Source: Candidatus Bathyarchaeota archaeon
GTDB taxonomy: Archaea > Thermoproteota > Bathyarchaeia > TCS64
Assembly (NCBI GenBank): GCA_043826455.1
Contig: JBDRQD010000030.1
Location: 1 to 64,000 of the forward strand
Length of the DNA stretch: 64,000 nucleotides
Direction: 5' to 3'
Of this stretch, positions 39,001 to 48,000 are shown piece by piece. A program made the position numbers. Each line of letters begins with the position of its first letter. Within the stretch, counting starts at the first letter, position 1.

Positions 39001-42000
39001 ATGGGGGTGCTTTGATGAGGTGGAGGACGGTGTCGTTGTGGGTGTCCACCACCAGAGAGGACTTATGGATGGCATGGGCCCTCTCAGTCTGATCCTTGGA
39101 CAGGTTAAACATGGTTCTACTTGTTGTGTTCAGAGATTTATCAGGATCGCACATGCTGGTTGAGAGTCGTTCAGCTCCTCAGGCCCCGAACTCGAAACCA
39201 AGCTCCTCCATCTCTTTCCTCATCTTATCGTATAGTTCCTGGAACTCCTGTCTCGGTGTTAGTGTCCTCGTGTTGTACATTTCGCCAAAGGTGTACCCCC
39301 ATGGTCCGCCGTCATCGGTGACTTTTTTCTCGTATTTCTGTACGATCTGTCGCACCAGCTCGTTGGCGTCGTCTCTCTTGATGCCCACGGCGGCGCGTCC
39401 AAGCTCTGCGTGGAACTTGTTCTCCAGAGCGCTTCCCAGCATGGGCTTCACCTTGTACCTGCGTATCCCGCCGCCGCAGAAGAGGTCGCGCCCTGAGGCC
39501 AGTCCGGCGATGCATAGCGCCGCTATCTCCCAGAGCTGCATCTCCGTGCCCGGCCCGGCGGCTGTCAAGAAGAACCTCCCATTGACTCCACGATAGTTTC
39601 TGGCTATAGCCTGCCCCGTGAGCTCTGTGCCCCACATCCCAGGGTTGATGCTTGAGATGGGCACAGGGCCCGGGCACCTCGTCAGCCCGTGGTCGCCGTA
39701 GACGGGGCTTACCCTATGGTGGTAGACCATCGCTGCACCCAGGAAGTCCGCTATGGAGACCACAGCTGCGCCCTCGGGTCCACCGCCCCAGCCGCCAATG
39801 ACTGACCCTCCATGTGTGGCCCTTATGCAGCCGTAATCGAGGGCGTAGGCTACTTTCCCCAGGGCTTCGTAGTCAGTCTTGAGCTCAGCTATGAGAGATA
39901 CCATCAGGCCATCGGAACTTCTGACACCATTCTCAGGGTTGCACGCAGCGATGTCCGCGATGGCTGACGGACACGCTGAGACAAAGTGTAGCCCAGGTCT
40001 CCCCGCCCTCCTTATGGCTTCGCGCGCCCACGACGCCATACACCTGCCCAGGTGCAGCTCAAGGGGCGACCCCTTTCGTAGCGTGTGGCCCTCAGATGTG
40101 TGAACGGGGGGCCCCACGTAGAGCCCATCGATGAGAGGTTCCTGGGCTATGCTCTGATACAGCTTGACGAAGTTCTCTCCTTCCTGTATGTCGCTCTCGA
40201 TGACGCCCCCGATGATTACAGGTGGCCTGGTTCCCTCTATACCTCTACGAGTTACTACCCGTTTTTCGCCCCCTTCGCCGATCTCGACTTCACCGCGGAC
40301 GTCTCTTAGCGCCTCTTTTACCTCGGATTCCTTGAACTTGATTACGCGCCTGGTGTTCACACAGTATACGCCGAGTTCCAGGAAAAGCTCGAAACCCGCC
40401 TTCCAGACGTCGTCGGCCAGGCTGTCGTCGTTGGGCACGTAGACCTCTGGATCATATTTTATTTCATATTCGTTAACTAGCCTCGACGCCGATCTGAATA
40501 TCTTCATGTCGAAGTCTCTTACACTCGTCTCCGCTCCAGTGTTGCATGCCCTGTTGAGTATCTCCCAGAAGTTTGTGGTGCTCACCTTTTCTATCCTCCG
40601 TGATCATATTCGGTTGCTAGAACTCGAGTCCCAGGTCCTCCAGCTCCTTCTTCACCCCATCATATACTTCGAGGAACTTCTTCCTAGGCTTCAAGGTCTT
40701 CAGGTCGTATATCTCGTCGAAGGTGTACCCCACGGGGCCGCCGTCCGAGTCCCTAGTGATCCTGTGCTCATACTTTGAGAGCATCTCGTCAGCTAACGTG
40801 TTGGCGAAGTCGCGCTTCACCTTTGACATTGCGTGGCCGACCTCACCCCAGAACCTGTTCTCCAGGCCGCTGCCCAGGAGAGGCTTCACCTTGAACCTTC
40901 TAACCCCCTGGGAGAGCCCTTCTCTGCCGCATGGGATCGACGCGCACAGGGCCGCCACAATCTCCTGGAACTGCATCTCTGTGCCCGGCCCCGCGTTGGT
41001 CATGGCTACAGCCGTGTTGATGATCTTGGTGTTCCTCGAGATGGCTTGGCTGCCGATGGCTGAGCCCCAGACGCAGGGGCGGGTGACGAAGGCGCTGTAG
41101 TTGGGTGTCGAGGCCCTCAGGTAGCCCAGGGCGTGGTAGGATGCCCCTACCCCAACCTTGTAGACCATCACCGCCATTATGGCGTTGGCGATGGACACGA
41201 TCAGCGCGCCCTCTGGTCCGCCGGCCCAGCCTCCGATCATCCCTCCGTTATACACGTGTTTCACGCAGCCGTAGTCGTGGCTGTAGACCACCTTGTTCAG
41301 GTTCTCGTAATCAGTCTTCAGCTCAGGCATGATCGTGGAGACGATCCCATCCGATCTCCGCAGCCCCTCGATGGGGTCGCAGGCGGCTACGTTGGCGATG
41401 GCCGATGTGCACGCCGATATGAAGTGCATCCCCGGCCTACCTGCCCGCCTCGTCGCCTCGCGCACCCAGGACGCCATGGAGCACCCGAGGTGCGTCTCCA
41501 GGGGCGTCCCAGACCTGACCATTTTGCCTTCAGATGATTGAAGAGGAGGGCCGACATAGAAGCCGTCGATGAGGGGCTCCTGGGCTATCGACTGGTAGAG
41601 CTTGACGAAAAGCTCCCCCTCGGGGACGTTGCTCTCGATTACGCCCCCGCAGACGATGGAGGGGGGGCTCCTATCCTCCACGCCTCTGAGAGTCAGGTGT
41701 CTTCTTTCTGAGCCCTCGCCGATGACGGCCTCGCCCCTGAGCTCCCTGAGCCCCTCTTTAATCTCCGAGTCGTCGAAGCTGATCACTCTGCTGGAGTTCA
41801 TGCAGTACGCCCCCACCTCTGTGAAGAGCTGGAGGCCTGCCCTCCAGGCGTCGTCGGCCAGGCTGTCGTCGGAAGAAACCGGTGTCGTGGGATCATATTT
41901 GATGCCGTACTCGCCCACGAGCCTTGAAGCCACCTTGAACAGCTTCATGTCGAAGTCTTTTGTAGCCATAGGCTTCCCGGTGTTACAGGCCCTGTCTAGG

Positions 42001-45000: not shown

Positions 45001-48000
45001 TGGGCGGCCTTGCCGAATTACAGAGCCAGGCGGTGAGCGGGGTGAACACCGCATTACGAGCCGCCTGCCGAGAGGCAGCCGTCGATCCTAGCCACATCTA
45101 CGAGGCGACGGTTGTCGGTAACACCGTGATGCATCACTTCCTTCTCGCCATCGAGCCCAGGTACCTCTCATTATCACCCTTCACACCGGCCTTGAAGGGG
45201 CCGATCAATGTGAGGGCGAGAGACCTCGGCTTCCAGATGAACCCCCACGGTGTCGTCATCATGATGCCCCTCGTAGCTGGCTTCGTCGGATCAGACGCGG
45301 TGGCGGATGTCTTATCGAGCGGCGTATATGAAGGGAGGGAGGCCTCACTACTCCTCGATATTGGCACCAATACGGAGATTTTTCTGGGCAACGACGAGGG
45401 CTTAATATGCTGCTCCTGCGCCTCAGGCCCCGCCTTCGAGGGGGGCCACATCAGGCACGGCATGAAGGCCGTGACAGGGGCCATCGAGAACGTTTCCCTC
45501 AACCCCTCAACTCATCGGGCTGACTTCAGCACGATCGGAGGCGGCAGGCCAAGAGGCCTCTGCGGCTCAGCCATGATAGACATAGTCGCGGAGTTGAGGA
45601 GGAACGGGGTAATCGACAGCACAGGAAAGTTTGTGTCAGGCCATGACTCCCCGTCGCTAAAAATGGGTGAAGGTAAGCCCGTGTTCGTCCTGGTGAATGA
45701 GGAGGACTCGGCGACGGGGCAGGAGATAGTGGTGACTCAGAGGGATATCAACGAGATCCAGAGAGCAAAGGCAGCCATCTACTCTGGCTGCTCCATACTG
45801 ATGAGAAGAAGAAACCTTAGAGAAGGAGACATCTCACGTATACTGATCTCAGGGGCCTTCGGGAGAAGCCTGAACCCTGAGAACGCGAGGCTTCTCGGCT
45901 TGGTGCCTGATCTGCCCGCGGAGAAGATCAGGTTACTGGGTAACACGGCGGTGACAGGCGCGAAGATGGCACTCCTCTCAAAGAAGGCTAGAGAACAAGC
46001 GAACGTGATATCGGATAAGGTAAAATATCTCGAGCTTTCCAGTGACCCCTTGTTCGGCTCCGAGTTCGCTATGGCCCTCTTCATCCCGCACAGAGACTCG
46101 ACCCGGTTTCAGTCCTTATCCCTGTCCTCCTGAATCGCTTCAGTCGACGGCATCGCTGATAGATGGTTCACTCACGCGTTTCACTATTGTAGCCTGCAGA
46201 AAGGAACCCACACCGTGACGGTGCAGTGGAGAAACCAGGGGCCAGTACAGGGTCGCCTGTACGATAGGGTACTGGAAGTCTTCGCCATACTCACCCATGG
46301 TCAATTGATGATGTTTTCGTTTCTCAGTATGTCGATGAATCTCTCAGCTATGGTGCTCCACTCGAACTTCTCTATCATCAGCTTCCTGCCCGCGGCGCCC
46401 ATCCTCAGTCTCTGCTCAGGGGCTTCCATGAGCTGCTCCACCCTCAGGACGAACTCGTCGAGGTCGTTGGTGGTGTAGCCGCTGACGCCGTCCTCAACCA
46501 CCTCAGGTATGCCGCCGACCCGTGACGCGACCACGGGTTTACCTGAGGCCGCTGCTTCCTGGAGAACCATCCCCAGGGTGTCGAGGGATGAGGGGTGGAT
46601 CACAAGGTCGCAGCTGGAGTAGTGTTTCTCTATGTCGTTTACGTAGCCTTTGAAGAAAACCTGATCTGAGAGCCCCAACTGGTCGACGTGGCGCTGAACC
46701 CTCGCCCTGTGGGGGCCGTCCCCCAGGAAGGTGATGGTGTAGTGGAGGCCGCTCTCCTTATACCTTCGCAGAAACGCGTAAAGGAGGCTGATCTTCTTGG
46801 GGACGGCGAAGTTCATGACGCACAGGATCTGGGACCTGTAGCCCTCAACCGGGGGCCTTATGTTGAATCTCTCCGTGTCCACTCCGCATGGCAGCGCGTA
46901 AACTGGTTTCTCTAGGCCGTTTCTCTCCGCGCTTCTCTTCAGATACTCGGAGACGGCGACAACGAAGTCCACGTCGTCCATGGAGACAGCGTTCTGGAGC
47001 AGCTTCACCCTGTAACCCAGCTTCTGTTTAAGGGATAGATCGTTATCCCTTGACTCCTCCCAGTAGTCGCCCTTAAGCCTCAGAATCACGGCTTTGGTTC
47101 GCCCCATCCTCTTGGCCATGCTGGCCCCCATGATCCCGTGGTAGGGGTTGTGAGTTACCAACAGGTCGCAGTCCACGGCATCGATATAGCTTCTGGTGGG
47201 CAGCGACAGGGAGTTCCGGATGCTCTTCAACGGTATGGTGCTGCAAGTGAACCCCGCCGCTGACAGCTGAGCCCCGAGGGCCTCGAACTCTCCCCTCCAC
47301 TCTATGAACTGGATGGAAGGCAGAGCAGAGCCGCTTCCATGATGAACTGTGCTTAAGGAGGCCGTTCGTTGATCCACGGCTCAAAGAGCGGATGTATTGA
47401 TAAAATTCTATGTGAGTAAACTGTGACTACACGCTAGCAAGAGCTTTTGTTGGAAACGGACTTTTATATCCTCACGGGGTTAAGAGTTAGTGATGACAGA
47501 AAGATACGTTCTGAGGACCGGCGGCACCGGAAGGGTGGTCGTCGCCAGACTCAAGCCGAGGTCTGACCTTCTCCGCTCACTCCAGCGGATTGTCGAGGAG
47601 AAGGGGGTCAAGGCCGCCGTCATCCTCTCCGGGGTTGGTCTCCTGTCGAATGCGTCGCTGCGGAACTGTAAGACGCTGCCGGACGAGTACCCCATCACAG
47701 ACCGTAACAGAAGCTTCATGTCCTTCGATAAGCCCCTGGAGATCATAGGCTTGTCAGGGGACGTCAGCATGGTAGAGGGGAAGCCTCTTGTTCACGCCCA
47801 TGTTATCCTTTCATACGTTGAGGACGAATCCATTAGGGTGGTGGGTGGCCACTTGGTTGAGGGTTGTAGGGTGTTCGGGTTCGCCGAGGTTTTCCTCCTG
47901 GAGCTCACAGGGATAGAGATGGTGAAGAACCTCGACGAGGAGACCCGGACACATCAGCTCTTCACATGACTGCTGGTGTGCTTCCTGTTCCTCTGCCATG

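Follow-up and report, generated by a model that had tools for sequence, protein, structure and literature searches.

Three pyrrolysine-free MtmB homologs encoded with a corrinoid protein and a reductive activase in a conserved bathyarchaeial gene cluster, a putative front end of corrinoid-dependent methyl transfer

Methyl transfer by a pyrrolysine-free homolog of MtmB has a described precedent in the MtqB/MtqC pair of Methanococcoides methylutens Q3c, where MtqB methylates its own corrinoid protein from tetramethylammonium and choline and is the single non-Pyl MtmB whose function has been demonstrated, in a clade placed near the Pyl-MtmBs and marked by a conserved Met/Cys and aromatic pocket (PMC13044021). 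The cluster described here shares with that pair the arrangement of a pyrrolysine-free MtmB homolog beside a cognate corrinoid protein; MtqB, however, belongs to a methanogen and operates with MtqA/MtbA and MCR, whereas the cluster comprises three paralogs from two old subfamilies in a genome where neither MCR nor a clear second methyltransferase (MT2) was found. MtmB1 of Methanosarcina barkeri (PDB 1l2q and 1nth), with its corrinoid protein MtmC (3ezx), is another point of reference: it falls in the same Pfam family and aligns with the paralogs over its full length, and the corrinoid protein of the cluster is homologous to MtmC. A shared logic is also apparent in the quaternary-amine enzymes of the MttB family (MtgB, MtcB, MtpB, and MtyB): in non-methanogens, a pyrrolysine-free relative of a methylamine methyltransferase is joined to its cognate corrinoid protein and to an activase of the RACo/RamA type. 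These enzymes nevertheless belong to a different family (PF06253), without a match in the source genome, and the MT2 of such systems is a pterin-binding THF methyltransferase, of which no counterpart was found in that genome.

In Bathyarchaeia themselves, mtmB has been recorded in seven orders and non-methanogenic methylotrophic acetogenesis has been proposed, with the gene products interpreted as monomethylamine methyltransferases in a main text that never uses the word "pyrrolysine" (PMC10321748). Most probably, those genes are the same as the a, b, and c types defined below. Given that record, the first-pass annotation of the present genome was right to caution that MtmB genes had been listed in Bathyarchaeota bins before but went too far in presenting the cluster as an extension of non-Pyl MtmB from methanogens to Bathyarchaeia. 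Pyrrolysine-free MtmBs are already known as widespread, and neither this kind of enzyme nor its presence in Bathyarchaeia is new; the subfamily structure of the three types, the pairing of type c with other paralogs, and the missing MT2 do not figure in the main-text passages of PMC10321748 that deal with these genes.

The source is the genome of a groundwater Bathyarchaeia archaeon (97.66% complete, 7.21% contamination, 81 contigs), and the window, that is, the whole stretch of DNA analyzed, spans 64,000 nucleotides. The cluster and its immediate neighbor are laid out as follows.

38060..39154, minus strand: M19-family dipeptidase, a neighbor outside the conserved module (Peptidase_M19 4.5e-100)
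39179..40585, minus strand: MtmB-family paralog a (g01080), 468 aa; PF05369 1.4e-76; Val at the pyrrolysine position
40617..42035, minus strand: MtmB-family paralog b (g01081), 472 aa; PF05369 3.1e-71; Ile at the pyrrolysine position
42032..42688, minus strand: corrinoid (B12) carrier protein g01082, 218 aa; B12-binding_2 and B12-binding domains
42689..42765, no strand: AT-rich spacer of 77 bases, read from the sequence, separating two divergent transcription units
42766..44151, plus strand: MtmB-family paralog c (g01083), 461 aa with GTG as the start codon, 458 aa if counted from the following ATG; PF05369 1.4e-47; Val at the pyrrolysine position
44226..46133, plus strand: RACo/AcsV-type ATP-dependent reductive activase g01084, 635 aa; Fer2, RACo_linker, Raco_middle, and RACo_C_ter domains

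The five genes previously annotated at 39179-46133 (three of the MtmB family, one for a corrinoid protein, and one for an activase) are all in place. The first 4 bases of the b gene are shared with the end of the corrinoid protein gene, the M19 gene follows a on the minus strand after a gap of 24 bases, and the spacer at 42689..42765 is likely to be a promoter region shared by both divergent units.

The scores of a, b, and c against PF05369 (258.6, 241.0, and 163.0 bits, respectively) far exceed the Pfam gathering cut-off of 25, with the profile covered from positions 3-5 to 449-450 of 450 (5-449 in a), and all three match 1l2q over its full length (residues ~11-458; phmmer E-values of 5.1e-50, 3.1e-45, and 1.6e-31), a purely sequence-based likeness to the solved MtmB. 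No internal stop interrupts any of the three MtmB-family matches of the window, and the column of residue 202 (X) of 1l2q holds Val in a and c and Ile in b; the original description of full-length genes without an in-frame amber codon, with Val in g01080 and Ile or Val in the other two, is thereby confirmed. This column reads V/I/V throughout the 8 a-clade, 11 b-clade (with one Ala), and 13 c-clade rows of the alignment. The divergence from MtmB1 extends to E205, E229, and E259 (numbering counted along the 1l2q alignment), which we take to be the glutamates around pyrrolysine: E229 is replaced by Met or Phe in a, Val in b, and Leu in c; E259 by His, Tyr, and Gly, respectively; and E205 is lost to a gap in a and b or to Pro in c. 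The control, a bathyarchaeial mtmB from genome G064, has TAG at the pyrrolysine position and keeps Glu in all three columns. Paralog b is 56% identical to a, and c is 29-31% identical to either; the identity of the three to a Pyl-type MtmB of the same class is only 25-31%. In the tree, a forms a clade of its own (SH-aLRT 99), as does b (support 100), the 13 rows of the c clade, among them a Peptococcaceae protein, share a stem that is 1.15 changes per site long, and all three types are far removed from the Pyl-type protein of G064; judging by this topology, type c is an old, separate MtmB subfamily. Protein searches started close to the Pyl type brought up no entry from Methanococcoides or Methanosarcina. 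These comparisons support the view that a, b, and c are full-length, pyrrolysine-free MtmB homologs with a corrinoid protein and an activase of their own.

The predicted corrinoid protein g01082 carries GDIHDLG, matching the cobalamin-binding motif DxHxxG, and passes the methyltransferase-cognate model TIGR02370 (219.1 bits; cut-off, 215.3) as the only match genome-wide, making it the sole methyltransferase-type corrinoid protein found in the genome; the nearest solved structures are MttC (7xcn, 5.1e-56) and MtmC (3ezx, 1.5e-41). The activase g01084 has a 2Fe-2S domain at its N-terminus and stays below the cut-offs of both the AcsV/RACo model NF040756 (505 bits against 800) and the RamA model TIGR04270 (110.9 bits against 500). 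Because it scores better with AcsV, it is assigned to the RACo type, so that the former label "RACo/RamA-type" stands as to the RACo domains but not as to RamA in the strict sense. Its ortholog in genome G144 is 69% identical and occupies the same position, and the activase adjoins c there and in locus L016; a second RACo gene of the source genome, on contig C76, adjoins the CODH/ACS genes.

Within the source genome, the MtmB family is confined to the window. The search for Pyl machinery covered PylD and tRNA-CUA: PylD scored 19.4 bits at best (cut-off, 150; 216.7 bits in the positive control G064, beside its TAG-bearing mtmB), and none of the 44 tRNAs has a CUA anticodon, which sets this genome further apart from that of the MtmB1 system. 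Profile searches of the genome gave no match to MCR_alpha, MtrH, MTTB, or Dimeth_Pyl, and contig C76 encodes CdhA-E along with MTHFR-like, Fwd-like, Ftr, and Mch proteins, components of CODH/ACS and the H4MPT pathway and thus of the archaeal Wood-Ljungdahl route. On all these counts, the first-pass annotation (no pyl genes or MCR, no MttB or MtbB families, and CODH/ACS, MTHFR, Ftr, and Mch on C76) agrees with our results, as it does in placing no MT2 gene in the cluster and a single URO-D gene elsewhere. Indeed, no MtrH-type, pterin-binding, or MtaA/MtbA-type gene was found within the cluster, and no MtrH-type or pterin-type MT2 in the genome at its 97.66% completeness, where the sole Pterin_bind match carries DUF6513/DUF4346 domains and belongs to the H4MPT-biosynthesis type. 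The URO-D gene, on contig C36, is divergent, with MtaA as its best solved match (9.4e-07) and scores under every NCBIfam cut-off; having orthologs in 65 of the 71 genomes of the taxonomic family, including 12 of the 21 without a corrinoid protein, it is a family-wide core gene that is not tied to corrinoid proteins. With no MtrH- or pterin-type MT2 found in the genome and no such tie for URO-D, the link of the cluster to the Wood-Ljungdahl pathway is putative.

The observed gene content, homology, residue replacements, conservation, and selection incline us, by a modest degree, to view the cluster as a front end for corrinoid-dependent methyl transfer, with the N-methylated donors, the MT1 role, and what becomes of the methyl as its inferred elements. 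Each of the TIM-barrel proteins a, b, and c would act as a first methyltransferase (MT1), picking up a methyl from a donor of its own, or one of the successive methyls of a common donor, and loading it onto g01082, the one corrinoid protein that they share, in its Co(I) state, and g01084, with ATP and a low-potential electron, would bring oxidized Co(II) g01082 back to Co(I). The precedent of MtqB argues for such an MT1 role (PMC13044021). The donors would carry an already activated methyl and would most likely be quaternary or otherwise N-methylated amines; with apolar, aromatic, or small residues standing in for pyrrolysine and its three neighboring glutamates, free monomethylamine is probably not among them. 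The methyl-corrinoid would be unloaded by an unlinked MT2, and in most relatives, an MtrH-type gene could make methyl-H4MPT for CODH/ACS; in the source genome, the profile search found no such unloading enzyme.

The cluster is accessory, with the MtmB family present in 8 of the 31 genomes of the genus (reproducing the earlier count), 23 of the 71 genomes of the taxonomic family, and 67 of the 401 genomes of the class sample, the source genome included. The five-gene module is found again in related Bathyarchaeia and evolves under purifying selection. The divergent layout, in which c, with or without the activase, faces the genes for the corrinoid protein (CP) and b, with or without a, is present in 7 of 10 loci from named genomes and also in genomes G144, G135, G018, G243, and G249, and dN/dS across all five genes is 0.08-0.18 (0.087 for a, which is 85% identical to its ortholog in G144 of the same genus, 0.096 for b, and 0.112 for c). 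Genes of the MtrH type occur in 17 of the 23 MtmB-positive genomes of the taxonomic family and are not found in the cluster-bearing relatives G144, G264, G112, G162, and G216; because MtrH is also common in MtmB-negative members of the family (26 of 48), its association with MtmB is loose. Among metagenome loci, type c stands beside a second, different MtmB paralog and one corrinoid protein in 45 of the 50 that are decidable. It also appears in the order CP-c-URO-D (L127, L128, and L130), in the order p-CP-c-TRAP transporter-URO-D (L143), and together with URO-D, two CPs, c2, and MtrH (L126), standard MT1 settings that point to an MT1 role for type c as well. The pairing of c with a second MtmB paralog on one corrinoid protein, along with the a/b duplication, could even reflect the stepwise demethylation of one polymethylated amine, for example, a betaine- or choline-like compound, to the primary amine. 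We consider this improbable; if true, it would imply a pyrrolysine-free demethylation of tertiary and secondary amines, contrary to the view that this chemistry requires pyrrolysine.

Among the alternatives, non-amine donors (methoxylated aromatics, methyl-sulfur compounds, or halomethanes) fare best, although we deem them rather unlikely. They would be in keeping with O-demethylation as a known way of life of Bathyarchaeia, which demethylate lignin monomers by a separate corrinoid system with MtgB (PMC10989822), as well as with the apolar and aromatic residues that replace the acidic surroundings of pyrrolysine and with the TRAP and sodium:solute transporters, carriers of organic acids, that adjoin type-c clusters elsewhere. 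Furthermore, in the Peptococcaceae strain DCMF, a non-Pyl MtmB is the most induced protein on dichloromethane, not on an amine (PMC9768040), which keeps such donors in contention. However, the sole characterized members of the family, MtmB and MtqB, use amines, the bathyarchaeial O-demethylase MtgB is a protein of ~300 aa reported to have no relatives among the known MT1s (PMC10989822), and no aromatic-degradation genes were found beside the cluster.

Quite improbable, in our assessment, is an assimilatory or reverse system that would supply methyls for methionine or other biosynthesis, or move them from methyl-H4MPT to an amine or thiol, outside energy metabolism: the accessory distribution of the cluster (8/31 and 23/71 genomes) and the failure to find a dedicated MT2 towards H4MPT in the source genome are consistent with it, but a set of three MT1 paralogs plus an activase of their own looks like a catabolic system, and most cluster-bearing relatives have both MtrH and CODH/ACS. 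Very improbable is the notion that one paralog is itself the missing MT2, moving the corrinoid methyl to H4MPT or a thiol and thus making the cluster a complete system. The two-paralog, one-corrinoid pattern of type-c loci (45/50), the loci L128 and L130, where c alone stands beside the CP and a URO-D gene takes the neighboring place, and the lack of an MtrH-type or pterin-type match in the source genome could be so explained; however, URO-D accompanies p and c in L143, and both URO-D and MtrH accompany c and c2 in L126, MtrH is present in 17/23 MtmB-positive family genomes, MT2 genes unlinked from MT1 genes are usual in Methanosarcina, and we know of no MT2 from the MtmB family. That a, b, and c are true monomethylamine methyltransferases, as suggested by the database name of close relatives ("monomethylamine:corrinoid methyltransferase") and by the small residual monomethylamine activity of MtqB (PMC13044021), is hardly credible in view of the missing amber codon, PylD, and tRNA-CUA, the replaced pyrrolysine and surrounding glutamates, and the 25-31% identity to a Pyl-type MtmB of the same class.

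The M19 dipeptidase has no homolog in 15 related loci; among 80 metagenome loci, two (L090 and L105) have an M19 gene in the vicinity of a, 44-45% identical to that of the source genome. Overall, the neighbors of the cluster vary from locus to locus and include M19, M20, acetamidase, arginase-family, DUF2284, MTTB, and UbiA genes.

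Positions 39179-46133 hold two divergent transcription units that face away from a 77-base AT-rich spacer. All five genes that the first-pass annotation had placed there, three of the MtmB family (PF05369), one for a corrinoid protein and one for a reductive activase, were found, with full-length Pfam matches for the three MtmB paralogues, here denoted a (g01080), b (g01081) and c (g01083).

Genes of the cluster and the adjoining M19 gene (Pfam cut-off for MtmB, 25 bits)
38060-39154, minus strand: M19 dipeptidase gene, 24 bases beyond a
39179-40585, minus strand: MtmB paralogue a, 468 aa; Pfam MtmB full-length, 258.6 bits
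40617-42035, minus strand: MtmB paralogue b, 472 aa; Pfam MtmB full-length, 241.0 bits
42032-42688, minus strand: corrinoid protein g01082, 218 aa; Pfam B12-binding_2 and B12-binding
42766-44151, plus strand: MtmB paralogue c, 461 aa; Pfam MtmB full-length, 163.0 bits
44226-46133, plus strand: activase g01084, 635 aa; Pfam Fer2 and three RACo domains

The last 4 bases of the corrinoid protein gene, at its stop, are shared with the start of b. The fold of a, b and c is strongly indicated by sequence, and no NCBIfam model matches any of the three. The corrinoid protein contains the GDIHDLG motif, scores above the cut-off of the methyltransferase-cognate corrinoid protein model and has MttC and MtmC as its closest solved structures. 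The activase had been labelled RACo/RamA-type; the first half of this label stands, given the RACo domains and the likeness to AcsV/RACo, whereas the resemblance to RamA is lower, and the scores for both are under their cut-offs. A second RACo-type activase gene lies close to CODH/ACS and CooC-like genes on contig C76 of the same genome (locus L025, 16498-18333), and g01084 is therefore read as an additional activase that serves the MtmB cluster specifically.

Aligned over the whole length of the solved Methanosarcina barkeri MtmB (1l2q; 5.1e-50 for a, 3.1e-45 for b, 1.6e-31 for c), the paralogues present Val in a, Ile in b and Val in c opposite residue 202, the pyrrolysine (Pyl) printed as X, in line with the earlier reading that there is no in-frame amber codon and that Val stands in g01080 and Ile or Val in the other two. 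The same holds across an alignment of 67 family members from the loci collected here, in which the in-frame TAG of a gene from genome G064 marks the Pyl column: V occupies it in 8/8 a-clade and 13/13 c-clade rows, and the 11 b-clade rows have I or V and, once, A. The columns of E205, E229 and E259 (numbered along the 1l2q alignment), residues that we take to have a role near pyrrolysine, read E, E, E in the Pyl-type protein of G064; gap, M/F, H in a; gap, V, Y in b; and P, L, G in c. The G064 protein shares 31% identity with a, 28% with b and 25% with c. This true Pyl-type mtmB, from Bathyarchaeia of another family (G064 contig C1, 353125-355452; fetched as L027, L059 and L149), has TAG at the Pyl position and a Pfam score of 728.8 bits, and its genome also holds several Pyl-free MtmB genes.

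The genome under study (97.66% complete, 7.21% contamination) yielded nothing above the cut-off for PylD, in a search that scores 216.7 bits in G064 directly adjoining the TAG-bearing mtmB, and no tRNA with a CUA anticodon among 44 tRNAs; MCR_alpha, MTTB and Dimeth_Pyl had no match in it. The earlier description of a genome without pyl genes or MCR is thus borne out. In relatives, several TAGs were considered as Pyl codons and rejected: those in URO-D orthologues (genus g10, G270 and G054) are natural C-terminal stops or lie upstream of the start; the one in the a orthologue of G018 is 12 codons ahead of the end; and the one in b of G243 takes the place of the Trp in GGWAGGPEG. None falls at the Pyl position, and PylD is absent from these genomes. 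The G243 gene (L058, 2026-3468, on G243:C234, from a genome that is 58% complete) has this single in-frame TAG in a conserved motif, probably because of an assembly error or because the copy is dead. No protein of Methanococcoides or Methanosarcina came up in searches seeded with the Pyl-type MtmB of G064 and a near-Pyl non-Pyl MtmB from locus L028.

Of 10 loci taken from named genomes, 7, all labelled Bathyarchaeia or Bathyarchaeota, show c facing the corrinoid protein gene and b, with or without a, and the relatives G144, G135, G018, G243 and G249 do so too; the activase gene follows c in G144 and locus L016, and a in G135. Compared with the same-genus orthologues in G144, dN/dS is 0.087 for a, 0.096 for b, 0.112 for c, 0.082 for the corrinoid protein and 0.175 for the activase. 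The module is conserved and under selection, and the finding is real. Because the MtmB family occurs in only 8/31 other genomes of the genus (the count obtained in the first pass as well), 23/71 of the taxonomic family, own genome counted, and 67/401 sampled genomes of the class, the cluster is accessory and patchy. From two metatranscriptome runs of what is probably the source study, only three short contigs matched, at 90-95% likeness; they fall on the M19 gene and at the 3' end of c, originate in relatives and do not prove transcription.

In a maximum-likelihood tree of 66 proteins (a quick IQ-TREE search in which SH-aLRT is the only support measure, the one Pyl-type row serves as root and several branches are long), a and b are sister clades with a support of 99, and type c is united in a clade (13 rows) whose stem is 1.15 changes per site long. 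Also in this clade are proteins of a Peptococcaceae bacterium (L021) and of a different Bathyarchaeia family (G071); in each of these two organisms, the gene adjoining type c is a second paralogue, type p, which branches basal to the a/b group, so that such gene pairs predate the a/b duplication. Among 80 metagenome loci retrieved by type-c alignment, with family members assigned by best BLAST hit to the tree clades, 45 carry a second MtmB paralogue (b in 21, a and b in 9, a in 1, a distant type c2 in 8 and p in 6), 30 have flanks too short for a decision, and 5 have no second paralogue despite at least 3 kb on either side; three of these 5 have nothing relevant nearby, and the other two are L128 and L130, described below. 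The family is of moderate size: in a library clustered at 50% identity, the c query finds 627 representatives at E <=0.001 and 133 at <=1e-30. What is new here is that type c is a subfamily of its own, of old origin, and is almost always accompanied by another paralogue; the literature searched yielded no treatment of the a/b/c subfamilies or of pairing with type c.

In several metagenome loci, type c stands in textbook settings for a first methyltransferase (MT1), the enzyme that loads the corrinoid protein: L127, L128 and L130 have corrinoid protein, c and URO-D genes; L143 brings together GntR, p, corrinoid protein, c, a TRAP transporter and URO-D; and L126 combines URO-D, two corrinoid proteins, c, c2 and an MtrH homologue. 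The canonical second methyltransferases (MT2), which unload the corrinoid protein, adjoin paralogue pairs in these loci, and all paralogues are for this reason read as MT1s, which would charge one shared corrinoid carrier. The rival possibility that one paralogue, the partner, is itself the missing MT2 is highly improbable, with canonical MT2 genes already beside the pairs of L143 and L126. As separate observations, L126 (positions 138-6997 of its contig, with an MtrH score of 338.6 bits) looks like a complete methyl-to-H4MPT route around type c, and L143 (4130-12437) looks bacterial, its DctPQM transporter hinting at a carboxylate-bearing substrate for that branch.

Free monomethylamine is disfavoured as the donor by the loss of both pyrrolysine and the acidic residues. 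This loss, together with the use of tetramethylammonium and choline by MtqB, the only characterised Pyl-free member (PMC13044021), leads to the first guess that the donor would be a quaternary or otherwise activated N-methyl compound. The guess is an inference and is tempered by strain DCMF, in which a non-Pyl MtmB is the most induced protein on dichloromethane (PMC9768040). The boldest reading, that the paired paralogues strip successive methyl groups off one amine without pyrrolysine, seems unlikely.

The proposed link to the Wood-Ljungdahl pathway starts from contig C76, where CdhA-E, an MTHFR-like pair, pyruvate:ferredoxin oxidoreductase, Fwd-like subunits, Ftr and Mch are encoded, as had been stated for CODH/ACS, MTHFR, Ftr and Mch. 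In this genome, no enzyme was found that carries the methyl group to H4MPT from g01082, its only methyltransferase-type corrinoid protein: MtrH has no match, and the sole Pterin_bind protein has DUF6513 and DUF4346 domains and is presumably of the H4MPT biosynthesis type. The single URO-D homologue, on contig C36, is divergent, with MtaA as the best solved match (9.4e-07) and scores under all NCBIfam cut-offs; it was rejected as a dedicated MT2 because orthologues occur in 65/71 genomes of the family, including 12 of the 21 that have no corrinoid protein, and it is therefore not specific to the MtmB system. MtrH homologues are present in 43/70 other genomes of the family, somewhat more commonly in MtmB-positive (17/23) than in MtmB-negative (26/48) ones, and are missing from the cluster-bearing G144, G264, G112, G162 and G216, as from the genome under study. 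Also new here, then, is that some cluster-bearing genomes appear to be without every known second methyltransferase; for Thermoplasmata MAGs, a missing second methyltransferase is reported in PMC11264602. For most relatives, a path to acetyl-CoA is plausible; in this genome it is unproven.

Bathyarchaeia are among the most abundant archaea of sediments and groundwater, where methylated compounds are a large and poorly budgeted carbon source, and we know of only one function in the Pyl-free MtmB family to date. If characterised, the enzymes would reveal which methyl donors Bathyarchaeia take without forming methane and would add a second and a third function to this family. What this locus adds is modest: its genes, their family and the ecological idea have all been published before. 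The extension of non-Pyl MtmB from methanogens to Bathyarchaeia, put forward as new in the first pass, cannot be maintained as such: PMC10321748 describes mtmB in seven orders of Bathyarchaeia and also proposes non-methanogenic methylotrophic acetogenesis, although the word 'pyrrolysine' is absent from its main text. Partial methylamine methyltransfer systems in MCR-free Bathyarchaeia MAGs are covered by PMC11264602, and according to PMC13044021 non-Pyl MtmBs have long been known, and its tree holds 1,061 sequences, for most of which no function is known. MtgB, the lignin O-demethylase of Bathyarchaeia, is another protein altogether, with ~300 aa (PMC10989822).

Outside the module, the M19 dipeptidase, a creatininase-family gene and ArsR were rejected as parts of the system, not being conserved in 15 related loci; neighbours beyond the core vary by locus and include DUF2284, MTTB, M20, acetamidase, arginase-family and UbiA genes. 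Neither Pfam nor NCBIfam gives a match for the 332-aa ORF at 35502-36500 (minus strand), which lies between the creatininase-family gene and ArsR. A DUF2284 'predicted metal-binding protein' gene, none of which was seen beside the cluster of the window, lies directly past a in four related loci (L015, 4605-5144; L018, 10396-10917; L108, 545-1195; L110, 2687-3202). In several genomes, differing metal-dependent amide or guanidine hydrolases (creatininase family, M19, M20, acetamidase/formamidase and arginase family) stand a few genes from the cluster, at 34642-35451 and 38060-39154 in the window and at L014 66-1133, L018 3078-4034, L058 6907-7863 and L061 1306-2484; no single hydrolase recurs across the loci, so these genes may merely reflect a peptide-degrading lifestyle.
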